A stretch of DNA of 64,000 bases from Hemiscyllium ocellatum. Taxonomy: Eukaryota. A program made the position numbers and the translations under genes. Below are positions 3,475 through 61,330 of this stretch, one piece after another; positions within the stretch are counted from its first letter, which is position 1, and each line of letters begins with the position of its first letter. The notes under the pieces were generated by a model. The model was not told the DNA's origin. It made no database searches and worked only from the letters and a program-made list of their open reading frames with translations. The stretch covers positions 103,641,164-103,705,163 of the forward strand of contig NC_083406.1 in assembly GCF_020745735.1 (NCBI RefSeq), written 5' to 3'.

Positions 3475-4810
3475 GGTGGATGGGCAAACTGATTATAGCC
3501 CTGTGGTACAAAGAGCCAAAGATCCAGTTGTCATGGTCCACATTGTTATCGGTAATAACGGTTTCTGCTGAAGGAATATGAACAGCTAGGTACTAAATTG
3601 AAAAGCAGAACCAAAAACATCATAATTTCCTGATTACTAACTGAGCCACAAGCTAATTGACATAGGGTCAACAAGATTAAAGAGCTAAACATGTGGCTCA
3701 AAGATTGGTGTGAAAGAAGTGGGTTTTAATTCATGGGACATTGTCACCATGTACTGGGGAAGGAAAGGACTATTCCAGTGGGGCAGGCCGCACCTGAATC
3801 ATGCTGGGTCCTGATGAATCGTAAAAACCAGGGCAATGGAAAGGGCTTAAAATTAAATGGGCGGGGTGGGGGGGGGGGGGGGGGGGGGGTCCAGTTCATG
3901 AAAAAGTATAAAATCAAAGGCAAAAGAGAAGATAGGATTGTAATTTGGTGATGGGGCTGACTGTCACCAGAAAATAAAAAGGGACAGAATGTGCTAACGT
4001 CATATTGGACCAGGAAACCATAAAAGTGTAGAGAAATGTGATACAACATATTTGAAGGCTTTGTATCATAATTCATGAGGCTTTCGGAATAAGGTAGTTG
4101 AATTGATGGCACAAATCCATGTAACTGAGAATGATCTCATAGCCATTATGGAAACATAGTTACAAGGAGATTAAAATTGGGATCTAAACATTCAGACAGA
4201 CAGGAGGGTTGAAAAAGATGGGTAACACCATTAATCAGATGAAATGAGGGGAGTTGATCTAGACTCAGATGATGTAGAGTCCATTTGGGCAGAGTAAAAC
4301 AAAACAAGGAAGAGAAGGCATAGGTAGGAGAAGTGTACATGTCCCTAAACAATAGCCACTCTGTGGGAAATGCTATTAGTCAATAAATAAAAGGAGCATA
4401 TAAAAAGAATAGAGCTGTAACTATGTGTGACCTTAATCTTCATGTTGATTAATCAAATTGGAAATGGTAGCCATGACAACAAATTCATAGAATGCATTGT
4501 AGGATCACTGAGCCAACCAGAGAGCAGGCTATCTTGGATCTGATAGTGTTAGATGAGGCAGTTTTAATAAATGGCCTCAGAATACAAGATCCACTTGGAA
4601 GTAGTGATCATAACATGACAGAATTTAATATTCAGTTTGAGAATGAGAAATTTGGATTGGAAACAATTGTGTTTAACTTACAAAAAGGAAATTACAATGA
4701 AATGAGGATAGAGTTAGCTAAAGTGAACTGGGCGGATGGATTAGAAGAAATGAACAGAGAGAAAGCAATGGCAAACCTTTAAGCAGGTTTTTCATGACTC
4801 TGAGCAATAA
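3475..4810 (+). mobile_element. Decayed CR1: ORF1 esterase end, ORF junction and endonuclease
   Basis: PVVMVHI remnant near 3525, FMGH..YWG near 3730, junction GGGCTTAAAATTAA at 3843-3856, then EN motifs EPTREQAILDL and LGSSDHNM (ORF 4492..4782). Confidence 0.75.
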
Positions 4811-5310
4811 TGGGAAGCTAGAGAAGTGATTGGTGGACCTCTTGTTGAGATACTTGTATCATCGATAGTCACAGGTGAAGTGCCGGAAGACTGGAGGTTG
4901 GCTAACATGATGCCACTGTTTAGGAAGGGTGATAAAGACAAGCCAGGGAACTATAGACCAGAGAGCCTGACACCGGTGGTGGGCAAGTTGTTGAAGGGAA
5001 TCCTGAATGACAGGATGTACATGTATTTGGAAAGGTAAGGACTTATTAGGGATAGTCAACATGGCTTTGTGAGTGGGAAATCGTGTCTTGATTGGGTTTT
5101 TTGAAGAAGTAACAAAGAGGACTAATGAGGGCAGAACGGTAGATGTTATCTATATGGACTTCAGTAAGGTGTTCAATAAGGTTCCCCATGGGAGACTGGT
5201 TAGCAAGGTTAAATCTCATGGAATACAGGGGGAACTAGCCATTTGGATACAGAACTGGCTCAAAGGTAGAAGACAGAGGGTGGTGGTAGAGGGCTGTTTT
5301 TCAGACTGGA
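4810..5310 (+). mobile_element. CR1 RT fragment
   Basis: VPEDWRLAN, PGNYRP, VDVIYMDFSKVFNKVPHGRL, WIQNWL..RRQRVVV in ORFs 4826..5038 and 5073..5357. Confidence 0.88.
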
Positions 5311-5664
5311 GCTGTAACATAACCTCTCTGCTTTTTTTTTGTAGATATTTTTATTGAAATTTAACATTTTTGCAAATTTACAAAAATAAACAAAACTCTC
5401 AAATACAAACATTGATGTACAATTAAATCATATATACAATAGTCATAATTTAACAAAGAAAAGAGAAAGAAAACAAAAAAAGAAAAAAAAATGAAAAAAG
5501 AAAAAAAAACTCAACTTTCTACTATTCTAACCTATAACTAACCAGAGTGTATACCTAAGTCTCTTACATGCTCGGAATGTATAAACATCAAATATAATAA
5601 AACCCGTATTCGCGCAGGATTCCTCTTCCAAGGGGCCCCGGAGCAGCCCGGTCTGAAATCTTCA

Positions 5665-54500: not shown

Positions 54501-57192
54501 TTTGCTTCTTCGATATCCTAGTGTCCTAGAATGTGGATCCTGCACTCACGTCCATCAGTAATGCTGTCTCCATCACCCTGAGCTGTGTCCCAGCCATTTT
54601 CTAATTGCATTTCACTCTAGAAAATGGCAAGTAATGGCAGGGCCAAGCTCCACGTGGTCATGGGTATCCCTCCAGAGCCTCCAAATCATCTTTTACCTCG
54701 TTCTACCTGACAATCCGTTTTCACTAATCACCTCCCATTTGGAGACCCAGCACATTGAACTGCACCTCGAATTATCCTCCCTGTCCCTAAAGCTAATGTA
54801 ATACCTTAACAATGCCGACACTCCTTGACCTTCTCATTGTGGAGGCCTTAGAGGTGATGACTGCCAATAACACCCTCCTGAAGTTTGACCATGGTGAATA
54901 TTAGGTGAGTTGACATGGATACGGGACTGCAAAGAATGATGGTGGGCTTATGTGTTGACGTGCTAGCACTAAGTTTGCGTGGGGCTATATGGGGGAATTG
55001 TTTGTTATGGAGAAACAATAGAGGTTGGTACAATGGCTTAGGGTGGCTTGGGAGTACAGGGGAACATTGGGTGTATATAGGAGCACAGGATGGTATGTAG
55101 TTTATAAGGATTGGGATTGGGTGGATGCAGATCACTAGTGACATGATGAGAATGAATGAGGAACTGGCAGTGTATGTCAGAGAGAGGAGATACCAGAAGG
55201 TGGAGAGCTGTCTTTGGTTTCAATCATTTTGTTTTACTCTCTTATTCAGTTCCTGATCATACAGGCATGCCTTCCACCCAGCCTGCGTCTATGTACAGTC
55301 TTAGCTCTTGTTCCAAGGTCATCAATCCCATCTTCCAAGGAACTCTATCTCTCCAGAGCTAAGATCCATCTGCTTGGGTGAAGTTTTGAATTTGTGGAGC
55401 TGTGGAATGTCTTTTCTCTGCATTTCCACATCCGTGAATGGAAATTGGGCCCAAAGGTGTATCGTATATCCAGGTGACCAAACAAAAGGGGGTTAGGCAG
55501 TTTTCTGGGAATCATTTTTTAAAAATTCCTGATGTCCAGCAGAAATTCACTGAGCTAGATCACTGATGTTTACCATTGGATATCCATCTTACTCAGCACA
55601 TTAAGGTGTGTTTTGTACATTGATATTCCCTGAGAAGGAGCAGATTCATTTGATCAAATTATTTTATTTCATCCCATGAGCCTTTTAATTCTCGTTTTAT
55701 TATTCTTAAAAGAATCAATTCAAATATGGTAATGAGAAAATGTGAGACCACTGATTGGATTGATTAAGTGCTAGATAGAACAATGAAGTCTCAAAGCCTT
55801 GAAACATTCTGTAATCCACAGGGCTTCAAGAAATGACATTGTAGACTTGAATGTTGAATATTTAGACTTGTAGGTCTGACACAATCCAATCCCACTGGCT
55901 CTTTCTTTTTTATCCTCTGACTTATCTTTCCATTCTAAAAAATTATATTTCACATTATTCCTTCTATCATTTGAATTATTTCCTTCTCTGTTTCAAACAT
56001 TGGGATCTTGCTCTCATTTCAATGTGTATCAGAAATTTAATTCAACTGTGCCCTAGATTACTGAAAATTAATGAGGATTAAATTAATTTGGGTCTAAAGA
56101 AATAAATATCCATTTGATTTCAGCAGGGTCTAATTAGCTCTGCTCCATCTAAAACAATGAAACATTTTGCTTCAGCTTTGCACACCAGAGTGATTTTTTT
56201 AGGTCATTGTTAGCTAGAAGAATCCTGTTATAAACTGAATAATGCAGGGTGCAGGAGGTGGAAGAAGTTATTGATTACCCAGTACTGTAGCTGAAAAAAG
56301 TACTGAAAAAAGATTTTCCACTTGCATTCATTTTAGCCACCTTTCATAATCACCAACATAGACATTTTGTATGCTTGACCTTCCAATCTGTCAGGCAAAG
56401 AAACAGGGCAATGCTATTTAGCATTTCACATTAAAAAAACGTGAAAATGAATTGGGATGGAATCTTCTATAAAGGGAGACCAGAAAATCAACAATTGTGG
56501 GCTTTGGCAGATCATTTAATTATTAAATTGTGTAATTAATAGCACAGTTCATCAAATTTAAGAATTTAATGAATGGTACTTTTGTCATTTTAATAATGTG
56601 CTTTTGAATGGAGCATTAGTATTGTCAAAGAGAGTGTCAGTCTGGCTAAAAATTGAAATTTCTTTTAAGAAGAATTTGGAAGCTGCCAGTAATATCCAAC
56701 AAGGGCTCTGATCGTTTACAAAATTATACAGCTTGTCAGGAAATGTTACACAGTGACTGAATACATGATGAAACGAAATACATGAGTGAATGTAGTTACT
56801 AAAGGGAAAAATAATGATAATCTTTTAAGGTTTTATTTATATTTAATTCAAACTACTTGACATATAACAAATTGTATGGGTTTTTACTAATTCATGTGAC
56901 AAGAGTTGAAACTACAATATATTCCTCTGTGAGGGAATATTATTTTTGAAAGATTCTTATGGACATGGAGGTTTTCTAAATCATCTTGATCCACCTTCCA
57001 AAACAGCCAAACAACATTCTGCCTCCAGCCATTATTACATTATTCTTGAGTTTTGTTTATCTAGAAACCAAATTCAAGTTTCTCCATGAAGAAGTTTCAA
57101 AGTTATTCTACATAGAACATAGAACATAGAAAAATACAGCGCAGTACAGGCCCTTCGGCCCTCGATGTTGCGCCAATCCAAGCCCACCTAAC

Positions 57193-59961
57193 CTACACTA
57201 GCCCAATAACCTCCATATGCCTATCCAATGCCCGTTTAAATGCCCATAAAGAGGGAGAGTCCACCACTGCTACTGGCAGGGCATTCCATGAACTCACGAC
57301 TCGCTGAGTAAAGAATCTACCTCTAACATCTGTCCTATACCTACCACCCCTTACTTTAAAGCTATGCCCCCTCATAATATCTGACTCCATACGTGGAAAA
57401 AGGTTCTCATGGTCAACCCTATCTAAACCCCTAATCATCTTGTACACCTCGATCAAGTCACCCCTAAACCTTCTTTTCTCCAATGAAAACAGCCCCAAGT
57501 GCCTCAGCCTTTCCTCATATGATCTTCCTACCATACTAGGCAACATCCTGGTAAACCTCCTCTGCACCTGTTCCAGTGCCTCCACATCCTTCCTATAGTA
57601 TGGCGACCAAAACTGCACACAATACTCTAGATGCGGCCGCACCAGTATCATATACAACTGCAACATGACCTCAGGACTCCGGAACTCAATTCCTCTACCA
57701 ATAAAAGCTAGTACGCCATATGCCTTCTTCACAGCACTATTTACCTGGGTGGCAACTTTCAGAGATCTGTGTATATGGACACCATGATCCCTCTGCTCAT
57801 CCACACTACCAAGTATCCGACCATTAGCCCAGTACTTCATCTTCTTGTTACTCTTACCAAAGTGAATCACTTCACACTCAGCTACAGTGAACTCCATTTG
57901 CCACCTTTCTGCCCAGCTCTGCAGCTTATCTATATCCCGCTGTAACCTGCCACATCCTTCCTCACTGTCAAAAACTCCAGCGACTTTCGTATCATCTGCA
58001 AACTTGCTCACCCAACCTTCTAGCCCCTCCTCCAGGTCATTTATAAAAATGACAAACAGCAATGGTCCCAAAACAGATCCTTGCGGAACACTGCTGGTAA
58101 CTGCACTCCAAGATGAACCTTTACCATCAACTACTACCCTCTGTCTTCTTCCAGCCAGCCAATTCCTAATCCAAACATCCAACTCCCCCTCAATGCCATA
58201 CCTCCGTATTTTTTGCAGTAGCCTACCATGGGGAACCTTATCAAATGCCTTACTAAAATCCAAATACACCACATCAACCGCTTTACCCTCATCCACCTCC
58301 TTAGTCACCTTCTCAAAGAATTCAATAAGGTTTGTGAGGCACGACTTGCCCTTCACAAAACCATGCTGACTATCCTTGATCGCATTACTCCTATCCAGAT
58401 GTTCATAAATCCTATCCCTTACAATTCTCTCTAAGACTTTGCCCACAACAGAGGTAAGACTCACCGGTCTATAGTTACTATGGTTATCCCCACTCCCCTT
58501 CTTGAACAAGGGAACCACATTTGCTATCCTCCAGTCTTCTGGCACTATTCCTGTAGACAACAAGGACATAAAAATCAAGGCCAATAGCTCTGCAATCTCC
58601 TCCCTTGCTTCCCAAAGAATCCTAGGATAAATGCCATCAGGCCCAGGGGACTTATCTACATTCACCCTTTCCAGAATTTCCAACACCTCTTCCCTACATA
58701 TCTCAAAGCCATCCATTCTAATTAATTGTGACTCAATATTCACATCGGCAACAATGTCCTGTTCCTGAGTGAATACTGATGAAAAGTATTCATTCAGTGT
58801 CTCCCCAATTTCTTCAGCCTCCACACGCAATTTCCCACTACTATCCTTGAATGGACCTATTCCTACCCTCGTCATCCTTTTATTCCTGACATACCTATAG
58901 AAAGCTTTTGGGTTTTCCCTAATCCTACCAACCAAGGACTTTTCATGTCCCCTCCTTGCTGCTCTTAGCTCTCTCTTTAGATCCTTCCTGGCTACCTTAT
59001 AACTCTCAATCGCCCCAATTGAACCTTCACGCCTCATCTTTACATAGGCCGCCCTCTTCCCTTTAACAAGGGATTCCAATTCCTTATTAAACCATGGCTC
59101 CCTCACACGACTCTTTCCTCCCTGCCTGACAGGTACATACTTATCAAGGACACTCAGTAGTTGCTCCTTGAACAAGCTCCACATATCGATTGCACCCTTC
59201 CCTTGAAGCCTACTTTTCCAATCCACGCATCCTAAGTCATGCCTCACCGCATCATAATTTCCCTGCCCCCAGCTATAACTCTTGCCCTGTAGTGCACACT
59301 TATCCCTCTCCATCACTAGAGTAAAAGTCACCAAATTGTGGTCACTGTCCCCAAAGTGCTCACCTACCTCCAATTCTAACACCTGGCCTGGTTCGTTACC
59401 CAGAACCAAATCCAGTATGGCCTCACCTCTTGTTGGCTTGTCTACATATTGTGTCAGGAAACCCTCCTGCACACATTGGACAAACACCGTTCCATCTAAC
59501 GTACTCGAGCTATAGCTTTCCCAGTCAATATCTGGAAAGTTAAAGTCCCCCATAACAACCACCCTATTACTTTTACCCTTCTCCTGAATCATCCTCGCAA
59601 TCTTTTCTTCTAAGTCTCTAGGACTATTAGGAGGCCTGTAAAAAACTCCTAACAGGGTGACCTCACCTTTCCTATTTCTAAGCTCAGCCCAAACTACCTC
59701 AGATGGCGAGTCTTCATCCATCGTCCTTTCCACTGCTGTAATACTATCTTTGACAAGCAATGCCACACCTCCCCCTCTTTTACCACCACCTCTGACCCTA
59801 CTAAAACATTTAAACCCTGGAACCTGCAACAACCAATCTTGTCCCTGTTCTACCCATGTCTCTGTAATGGCCACAACATCGAAGTCCCAGGTACCAACCC
59901 ACGCTGCAAGTTCACCTACCTTATTTCGTATACTTCTCGCATTGAAGTATACACACTTCAA
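57193..59961 (-). CDS. CR1 ORF2 (APE endonuclease and RT), 922 codons open, no ATG at its 5' end
   Basis: YFNARS, ITETW, MGDFN, SDHN, SPGPDG, NYRPVSLT, DFSKAFDKVPH, PQGSVLGP, KFADD, LVRPHLEYC. The track start at 59961 is TTG, with an in-frame stop at 60024-60022. Confidence 0.93.
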   Translation of the reverse strand: MKCVYFNARSIRNKVGELAAWVGTWDFDVVAITETWVEQGQDWLLQVPGFKCFSRVRGGGKRGGGVALLVKDSITAVERTMDEDSPSEVVWAELRNRKGEVTLLGVFYRPPNSPRDLEEKIARMIQEKGKSNRVVVMGDFNFPDIDWESYSSSTLDGTVFVQCVQEGFLTQYVDKPTRGEAILDLVLGNEPGQVLELEVGEHFGDSDHNLVTFTLVMERDKCALQGKSYSWGQGNYDAVRHDLGCVDWKSRLQGKGAIDMWSLFKEQLLSVLDKYVPVRQGGKSRVREPWFNKELESLVKGKRAAYVKMRREGSIGAIESYKVARKDLKRELRAARRGHEKSLVGRIRENPKAFYRYVRNKRMTRVGIGPFKDSSGKLRVEAEEIGETLNEYFSSVFTQEQDIVADVNIESQLIRMDGFEICREEVLEILERVNVDKSPGPDGIYPRILWEAREEIAELLALIFMSLLSTGIVPEDWRIANVVPLFKKGSGDNHSNYRPVSLTSVVGKVLERIVRDRIYEHLDRSNAIKDSQHGFVKGKSCLTNLIEFFEKVTKEVDEGKAVDVVYLDFSKAFDKVPHGRLLQKIRRYGIEGELDVWIRNWLAGRRQRVVVDGKGSSWSAVTSSVPQGSVLGPLLFVIFINDLEEGLEGWVSKFADDTKVAGVFDSEEGCGRLQRDIDKLQSWAERWQMEFTVAECEVIHFGKSNKKMKYWANGRILGSVDEQRDHGVHIHRSLKVATQVNSAVKKAYGVLAFIGRGIEFRSPEVMLQLYMILVRPHLEYCVQFWSPYYRKDVEALEQVQRRFTRMLPSMVGRSYEERLRHLGLFSLEKRRFRGDLIEVYKMIRGLDRVDHENLFPRMESDIMRGHSFKVRGGRYRTDVRGRFFTQRVVSSWNALPVAVVDSPSLWAFKRALDRHMEVIGLV

Positions 59962-60073
59962 GTCACCTTCCTGTTTACAGGCACCCTCCTTCGAGATTGA
60001 TGTCTGGTTCCTAACCTCCCTTTAAGGTCCTGCACCTTAAAACTACAGTCTAGGTTCCCATGCCCCTGCAGAG

Positions 60074-60645
60074 TTAGTTTAAACCCCCCAAAAGAGCACT
60101 AGCAAACCTCCCCCCAAGGATACTGGTGCCCCTCAGGTTCCGGTGTAGACCATCCTGTTTATAGAGGTCCCACCTTCCCCAGAAAGAACCCCAGTTATCC
60201 AGAAACTGGAATCCCTCCCTCCTGCACCATCCCTGTAGCCACGCATTTAACTGATCTCTCTCCCTATTTCTTGACTCTCTATCACGTGGCACGGGTAACA
60301 AACCAGAGACAACAACTCTGCTTGTTCTAACTCTGAGCTTCCAACCTAGCTCCCTGAAAGCCTGCCTAACATCCTCATCCCTCTTCCTACCTATGTCGTT
60401 GGTGCCAATGTGGACCATGACTTCGGGCTGCTCCCCCTCCTCCTTAAGGACCCGGAAAACACGATCAGAGACATCACGTACCCTTGCACCTGGGAGGCAA
60501 CATACCAAACGTGAGTCTCTCTCGCCCCCACAAAACCGCCTATCTGTGCCCCGACTATCAAGTCTCCAATAACTATTGCTCTGCTCTTCTCCACCCTTCC
60601 CTTCTGAGCAACGGGGATAGGCTCCGTGCCAGAGGCCTGAACCCC
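60074..60645 (-). pseudogene. CR1 ORF1 SGNH/GDSL esterase domain, truncated and frameshifted
   Basis: VIGDL(S)IV block I (Ser replaced by Leu, TTG at 60561-60559), frameshift near 60550, then CLPGA, VHIGTND, DGLH, ending GGLN*. Confidence 0.88.
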
Positions 60646-61149: not shown

Positions 61150-61330
61150 ATGTTGCTGTATCCCATCATTTGCCCCACAGCGTAAAAGGCTACTTTGAGG
61201 GAAGGACGCGGTGACGTCTGGGAGTTGTAGTCTAATATAGGCTGGGCCCAATCGAAGTATAAAGAGCGTGACTACAACTCCCACGACCCTTTTCCGCGGG
61301 CCAGCGAGGCGCGTGCGCATTGAGTGGAGT
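61150..61330. promoter_or_regulatory. CpG-rich promoter with paired ZNF143/THAP11-type sites
   Basis: TGGGAGTTGTAGTC (61219-61232) and GACTACAACTCCCA (61270-61283), CRE-like TGACGTC (61212-61218), CCAAT at about 61248, and NRF1-like GCGCGTGCGCA (61309-61319). Confidence 0.82.

Follow-up and report, generated by a model that had tools for sequence, protein, structure and literature searches.

A candidate −1 ribosomal frameshift site, U_UUA_AAC, is conserved at the nucleotide level at the ORF1/ORF2 junction of CR1 retrotransposons

How ORF2 is translated in bicistronic LINEs is described as an open question in passages of PMC3894237. L1 and SART1, the two LINEs that have been studied experimentally, both reinitiate, according to sections of PMC2881922. 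Another route is given for the Dictyostelium elements TRE5-A and TRE3-A, for which the legend of a review figure (PMC5911963) states that ORF2 translation requires a −1 frameshift. The four heptamers listed in parts of PMC5009743 as most prone to shifting on mammalian ribosomes include U_UUA_AAC, G_GGA_AAC and A_AAA_AAC. Elements of the CR1 group are dominant in many vertebrates, and in sharks and rays they account for 22-34% of the genome; canonical CR1 elements as a rule have an esterase ORF1 (excerpts of PMC13343379). The main text of that paper does not discuss the ORF1/ORF2 junction, frameshifting, start codons or translation, and CR1 has 0 occurrences in the searched portion of PMC5009743. 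In the literature searched we found no frameshift proposal for CR1; the chicken and turtle CR1 papers of the 1990s, which lie outside it, may mention the overlap.

We analysed a 64,000-nucleotide stretch of Hemiscyllium ocellatum DNA (hereafter the window) that holds a 5'-truncated CR1-type LINE copy on the minus strand (57110..60645, limits judged by eye). The 3' part of its ORF1 (60074..60645, minus) encodes an SGNH/GDSL esterase (Pfam Lipase_GDSL_2, E 3.4e-12) with the C-terminus Gly-Leu-Asn-stop. Its ORF2 (57193..60021, minus) comprises 942 open codons with an APE endonuclease (Exo_endo_phos, E 3.1e-21) and a reverse transcriptase (RVT_1, E 9.3e-33). A canonical CR1 LINE carries a short tandem repeat at its 3' end and no poly(A), and the copy has a short (TTCTATG)n tail at about 57130-57110. 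The canonical combination of an SGNH esterase ORF1, an APE endonuclease and reverse transcriptase in ORF2 and a short tandem 3' tail is thus present; judged by its domains and by the likeness of its junction to consensus rows labelled CR1, the element is a CR1 LINE. Its closest named ORF1 homologs come from sharks and rays. A 5-bp AGAAT repeat at 60650-60646 and 57109-57105 may be the target-site duplication of the copy, although a repeat this short could arise by chance. The copy is decayed and has a private frameshift in ORF1 near 60555.

Other sequences of this kind lie in the window. A second, older CR1-like copy (about 3540-5330, plus strand) has a decayed junction near 3843-3890 that reads GCT TAA AAT TAA; it differs from the motif described below by two changes and is followed by a G-run expanded to ~20 G. 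A third esterase-ORF1 fragment (about 33650-33100, minus) runs into endonuclease-like sequence, its junction apparently deleted. Both strands also carry many more reverse transcriptase fragments (tblastn with ORF2 gave 44 pieces in addition to the self match), as would be expected of a LINE-dense genome. A GC-rich, promoter-like stretch (61218-61283), about 570 bp away from the 5' end of the CR1 copy, contains two inverted ACTACAA-TCCCA motifs (61283-61270 and 61232-61218), which we take to resemble ZNF143-type sites. Outside the window, CR1 ORF1/ORF2 proteins 60-78% identical to the window element are filed under the names Pseudomonas, Proteus and Carnobacterium (P0006, P0043 and P0094) and are likely host-DNA contamination of bacterial assemblies.

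The last ORF1 codons of the window copy are GGT TTA AAC TAA (60085-60074). A first-pass annotation of this DNA had pointed to TTTAAAC at 60083-60077, in X_XXY_YYZ phase and directly 5' of the ORF1 stop, and the sequence bears this out: the slippery heptamer U_UUA_AAC (60077..60083, minus) is in ORF1 phase and is abutted by TAA (60074..60076, minus), a stop for which other families have TAG or TGA. By itself the heptamer is no rarity: TTTAAAC occurs 20 times on the two strands of the window; one further occurrence (60663-60657, minus), in the flank just beyond the 5' truncation point, is probably due to chance. The significance of the junctional heptamer comes from its conservation and not from its rarity.

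To assess this conservation, we used an ORF1 alignment search that was blind to the motif codons and returned 32 loci. The junction was inspected in 15 of them, the other 17 stopping short of the ORF1 C-terminus. These 15 comprise nine close relatives with an ORF1 end, four distant loci, and two (L008 and L010) that end before the stop. NNT TTA AAC formed the ORF1 end in all nine close relatives, making the heptamer invariant among them; the next codon is TAG in eight and AAG in the ninth, a decayed copy. TTA is preceded by CAT, GCT, TGT or TCT (GGT in the window), so that the residue varies while the third-position T is constant. Given a background in which TTA accounts for 7.7% of Leu codons, AAC for 45% of Asn codons and T for 26% of third positions, the expectation is 0.009 per lineage, a value that may not be multiplied across lineages because they share ancestry. 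The motif is absent from the four distant loci, which are 25-30% identical and have no downstream ORF2 match.

Consensus rows in the supplement of PMC13343379, as far as the searched parts extend, widen this picture. There, 17 of 23 TTTAAACTA matches sit at ORF1 ends, a count that gives breadth and not a conservation rate because the rows were found by the motif itself and in 400-character cells. The row prefixes at those ORF1 ends read as sharks, rays, chimaera, coelacanth, bowfin, halosaur, frog and crocodilians, and one lizard-prefixed row of the same parts has a TGA-stop version of the motif. Two parts of the supplement taken whole contained two junction-spanning CR1 rows, both with the motif. 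The searched passages of the PMC4316615 supplement yielded 3'-end matches only. In viral contigs, four protein or alignment queries returned no CR1 relatives, and a motif scan gave 62 matches, none with a tblastn match to ORF1 or ORF2; plasmids and phages gave no match.

A chance heptamer in a decayed copy with scrambled frames would be in keeping with the 20 occurrences of TTTAAAC in the window, the private frameshifts and a hairpin at chance level (see below). This explanation is refuted at the family level, where the motif is kept across many vertebrate lineages and the ORF2 frame is −1, and we give it next to no credence.

At the protein level, 50 of 91 near homologs have a Leu-Asn (LN) C-terminus; 56 of the 91 extend to the C-terminal motif, and the 50 are among these. 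The residue before LN is never Lys, Glu, Gln, Met or Trp (0/50), that is, never one unable to supply the T. A broader set of 150 representatives (50% clustering) included 93 with a DGxHL motif, of which 44 end in LN, 7 in GN, 3 in KN and 39 otherwise, with tails of 24 to 64 residues. The preceding residue is compatible with X_XXA_AAC in 53 of the 54 LN, GN and KN ends. The GN and KN ends would correspond to G_GGA_AAC and A_AAA_AAC heptamers, a reading drawn from protein alone; our searches of viral contigs, plasmids, phages and the covered parts of the PMC13343379 supplement retrieved no DNA of these families, and the supplement search no G_GGA_AAC or A_AAA_AAC junctions.

Leu-Asn might instead be kept for protein reasons, or the nucleotides might serve as a non-translational DNA motif (a TATA-like TTTAAA, a splice branch and acceptor, or a palindromic binding site), the −1 frame being incidental. 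The window junction, CTAAC...TGCAG|G, resembles a branch point followed by an acceptor, which speaks for such a role, as does the Leu-Asn encoded by other codons near the C-terminus of one locus (L032). In addition, two dogfish-prefixed rows in the parts of the PMC13343379 supplement covered, SquAca_CR1-18 and SquAca_CR1-3, carry GGTTTAAACTA in their 5' UTR, ahead of ORF1. However, the codon choice is fixed far past any protein need, which largely answers this alternative, and LN remains at the stop across tails of 25 to 39 residues. As for a DNA signal, it would fix neither the reading phase nor an open −1 frame, and the crocodilian-prefixed rows in the searched parts of that supplement have no AG|G acceptor. 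We therefore regard both versions as very improbable.

For a −1 frameshift to yield a fusion, ORF2 must lie in the −1 frame, and in the window copy it does not. The −1 frame, anticipated to stay open for about 40 codons, runs for 41, reading FKLTLQGHGNLDCSFKVQDL..., and is out of register with ORF2 (60021-57193), which is in +1. An ORF1-ORF2 fusion is consequently impossible from the window copy itself. The first-pass annotation had recognized this mismatch and assumed a copy-specific indel of 1 mod 3 nt near 60020-60030. We compared positions 59850-60250 at 80% likeness with four public runs, namely three contig sets (two organism labels) and one RNA read set (a third label), and the assumption held: other copies have eight letters where the window copy has four (60021..60024, minus), a private lesion that shifts ORF2 from −1 to +1.

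Several lines of evidence locate this lesion. In run X1 the summed depth, which is not a copy number, is 98,516 at 60037 and 179,823 at 60006 and collapses to ~2,150 at 60022-60023. All indels among those listed for the four runs fall within 60022-60024. Loose-end consensuses built from 7, 5 and 12 contigs read eight letters instead of four, with an agreement of 0.97-0.99. Both bridging contigs among those listed (2/2) carry +4, and three of four RNA reads have a 4-letter insertion at the lesion. A 2-letter insertion was seen in one contig per run in two runs (depth 380 and 400) and may sum to +3, not +4. With four additional letters the 52-nt gap becomes 56 nt and contains no stop (hand count), and therefore ORF2 is in the −1 frame in the other copies. 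The continuity of the −1 frame with ORF2, checked on the aligned public runs, thus holds for the family. Across the heptamer and stop (60074-60083), there is no variant among the 40 of 105 rows listed for the four runs.

The lesion falls within an inverted repeat, perfect over 8 bp (60021-60028 with 60034-60041), which depends on the window copy's own letters at 60037 and 60021-60024. It has the appearance of a template-switch mutation by which a quasi-palindrome became perfect. A second hairpin at 60041-60021 was considered as a family feature and rejected, as it depends on these private letters.

The relatives point to the same frame. From the heptamer onwards, ORF2 lies in −1 over 33-88 codons without stops in six of the seven relatives that reach the endonuclease, and the remaining frames of those relatives carry 1-10 stops; the exception (L017), a decayed locus, has ORF2 in +1. 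In 6 of 10 junctions the −1 frame opens just 1-2 codons 5' of the heptamer, and none of the 10 has an upstream ATG in that frame. Because of this late opening and the lack of an upstream ATG, ribosomes must enter the −1 frame no earlier than the heptamer. The gene models P0077, P0098 and P0108 each join ORF1, FKL, a linker and the endonuclease in a single frame. With the −1 frame of the family, a heptamer kept at the nucleotide level and no room upstream for a start, a −1 frameshift yielding an ORF1-ORF2 fusion is a well supported reading of these sequences.

Entry after the heptamer could also take the form of termination-reinitiation in the style of SART1 and L1, at UAAUG, at a nearby AUG or at a non-AUG codon, with UUUAAAC, the stop and the G-run acting as a cis signal for ribosome retention. 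The first-pass annotation had stated that ORF2 has no in-frame ATG before the endonuclease. This is true of the window copy, which has CAG at 60004..60006 (minus), and false for most family copies, which have an ATG there, in frame with ORF2 and in good context (AAC ATG G), 71 nt behind the stop and 15 codons 5' of the endonuclease. The change at 60005 that creates it accounts for 80%, 68% and 87% of the depth in the three contig runs and appears in all seven RNA reads (7/7); part of the family has AAG instead. Reinitiation stays a live rival because most family copies carry this ATG. An ATG also lies 2 nt behind the stop in four relatives (L003, L004, L007 and L009), and a linker Met is present in five of six intact relatives, four of which have it at codon +4, immediately after the stop. 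The stop-start UAAUG itself was found in three shark-prefixed consensus rows in the covered parts of the PMC13343379 supplement and in one loose end; the window copy has TAA-CT and none of the nine relatives (0/9) has the overlap. The precedent of SART1 and L1, in the passages cited above, and the lack of any 3' structure found at the junctions also favor this alternative.

Nevertheless, the AUG does not keep its place. Its codon position across relatives is 4, 11, 16, 22, 24, 28 or 58; one relative (L001) has no AUG at all, one gene model (P0077) has it elsewhere, and AAG replaces it in part of the family. A conserved AUG of ORF2's own upstream of the endonuclease, which the annotation had named as evidence against frameshifting, is thus present in most copies of the window's family, but its position is not conserved between families. 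Reinitiation also leaves unexplained the open −1 frame between the heptamer and the first AUG, the third-position T before TTA, and the fit of LN, GN and KN ends alike to X_XXA_AAC. We consider it unlikely as the explanation of the junction, though far from negligible. Frameshifting accordingly remains our preferred reading, and the sequence comparisons make it probable that −1 ribosomal frameshifting is a real expression route at the CR1 ORF1/ORF2 junction.

Most efficient −1 sites have a 3' structure, and a hairpin had been proposed as the stimulator here. Its components are where they had been placed, a TAACT spacer followed by the arms CTGCAG (60071-60066) and CTGTAG (60048-60043), and the CUGCAG/CUGUAG hairpin (60043..60071, minus) is in the minimum-energy fold. 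As a stimulator, however, it fails: its folding is not significant against shuffles (z −0.11 to −1.08 at four lengths, and +0.17 to −1.0 in a second test), nor is it conserved. The heptamer is kept in all nine close relatives and the stem is not, as RNAalifold found no consensus pair in eight aligned junctions. Fold z-scores of the individual junctions were mostly between −1.4 and +1.6, with one at −2.2. Pseudoknots were probed only as best duplexes between the G-tract and the following sequence, as far as 400 nt downstream, and the z-scores of −1.0 to +1.1 gave no significant partner. A search of Rfam over 59700-60300 returned just two chance matches (E 2.4 and 3.6).

A better candidate for a 3' stimulator is a G-run (60063..60066, minus) that starts 10 nt after the heptamer and is followed by a second GGG at 60059-60057. 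The first run of at least four G lies at offset 10 in eight of nine junctions and at offset 9 in the remaining one. At the G-run, the Gly codon in the −1 frame is GGG in 9/9, compared with a background of 30%. In several noisy consensus rows of the covered PMC13343379 supplement parts, the G-run is displaced or missing.

Taken together, these observations suggest the following mechanism. Most ribosomes would terminate at the ORF1 stop and release ORF1p, while a small share would slip back one base on U_UUA_AAC, presumably with tRNA-Leu and tRNA-Asn slipping in tandem, as tRNA pairs do at other X_XXY_YYZ sites. The slipped ribosomes would then read through the variable linker to produce an esterase-endonuclease-reverse transcriptase fusion. 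The efficiency is expected to be low, matching a small need for ORF2p, and the stimulation may come from the G-run 10 nt downstream, from the abutting stop or from both, and not from a hairpin. Reinitiation could operate in parallel where a family has an AUG close by, as that of the window copy does. A wider generalization is possible but doubtful, namely that vertebrate esterase-ORF1 CR1s and their distant G_GGA_AAC/A_AAA_AAC relatives all make a gag-pol-like fusion by a structure-free −1 frameshift that relies on the abutting stop and on a protein-bound G-run 10 nt downstream.

If frameshifting is indeed used, CR1 would provide an ancient example of recoding in animals, its ORF2p would have to be redefined at the N-terminus as an esterase fusion, and the −1 site would set the ratio of ORF1p to ORF2p. 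It would also explain how these very abundant elements, from sharks to crocodilians, make their reverse transcriptase, in a manner similar to retroviruses. The junction is a short cassette that is directly testable in a reporter.

Among viral systems, a close counterpart is the 1a/1b site of the coronavirus IBV, whose heptamer, U_UUA_AAC, is identical to that of CR1, and in RSV gag-pol the non-shifting ribosomes terminate soon after the site, another likeness to CR1 (both from excerpts of PMC5009743). The IBV and RSV sites have a pseudoknot; the CR1 junctions yielded no conserved structure, and their stop follows the heptamer directly. The arterivirus PRRSV offers a parallel for the G-run, as a short unstructured CCCANCUCC located 11 nt 3' of its shift site is bound by nsp1beta and PCBP (PMC5009743, same excerpts). 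The CR1 G-run, 10 nt after the heptamer, resembles this motif in its spacing and could likewise be a candidate for protein binding, but it is G-rich whereas the PRRSV motif is C-rich, so that the comparison is an analogy only.

Among retrotransposons, TRE5-A and TRE3-A share with CR1 the APE-type non-LTR organization, with an ORF1 followed by an APE-RT ORF. They differ in belonging to an amoeba and to another clade and in targeting tRNA genes, whereas CR1 has an esterase ORF1 and a site conserved across vertebrates. SART1 and L1, like CR1, have a bicistronic LINE RNA, and their ORF2 depends on translation of ORF1 (passages of PMC2881922, PMC3708506 and PMC3894237). The UAAUG of SART1 is shared by some shark CR1 families, while the family of the window copy has TAA-CT; what CR1 keeps across its families is the heptamer, not the AUG.
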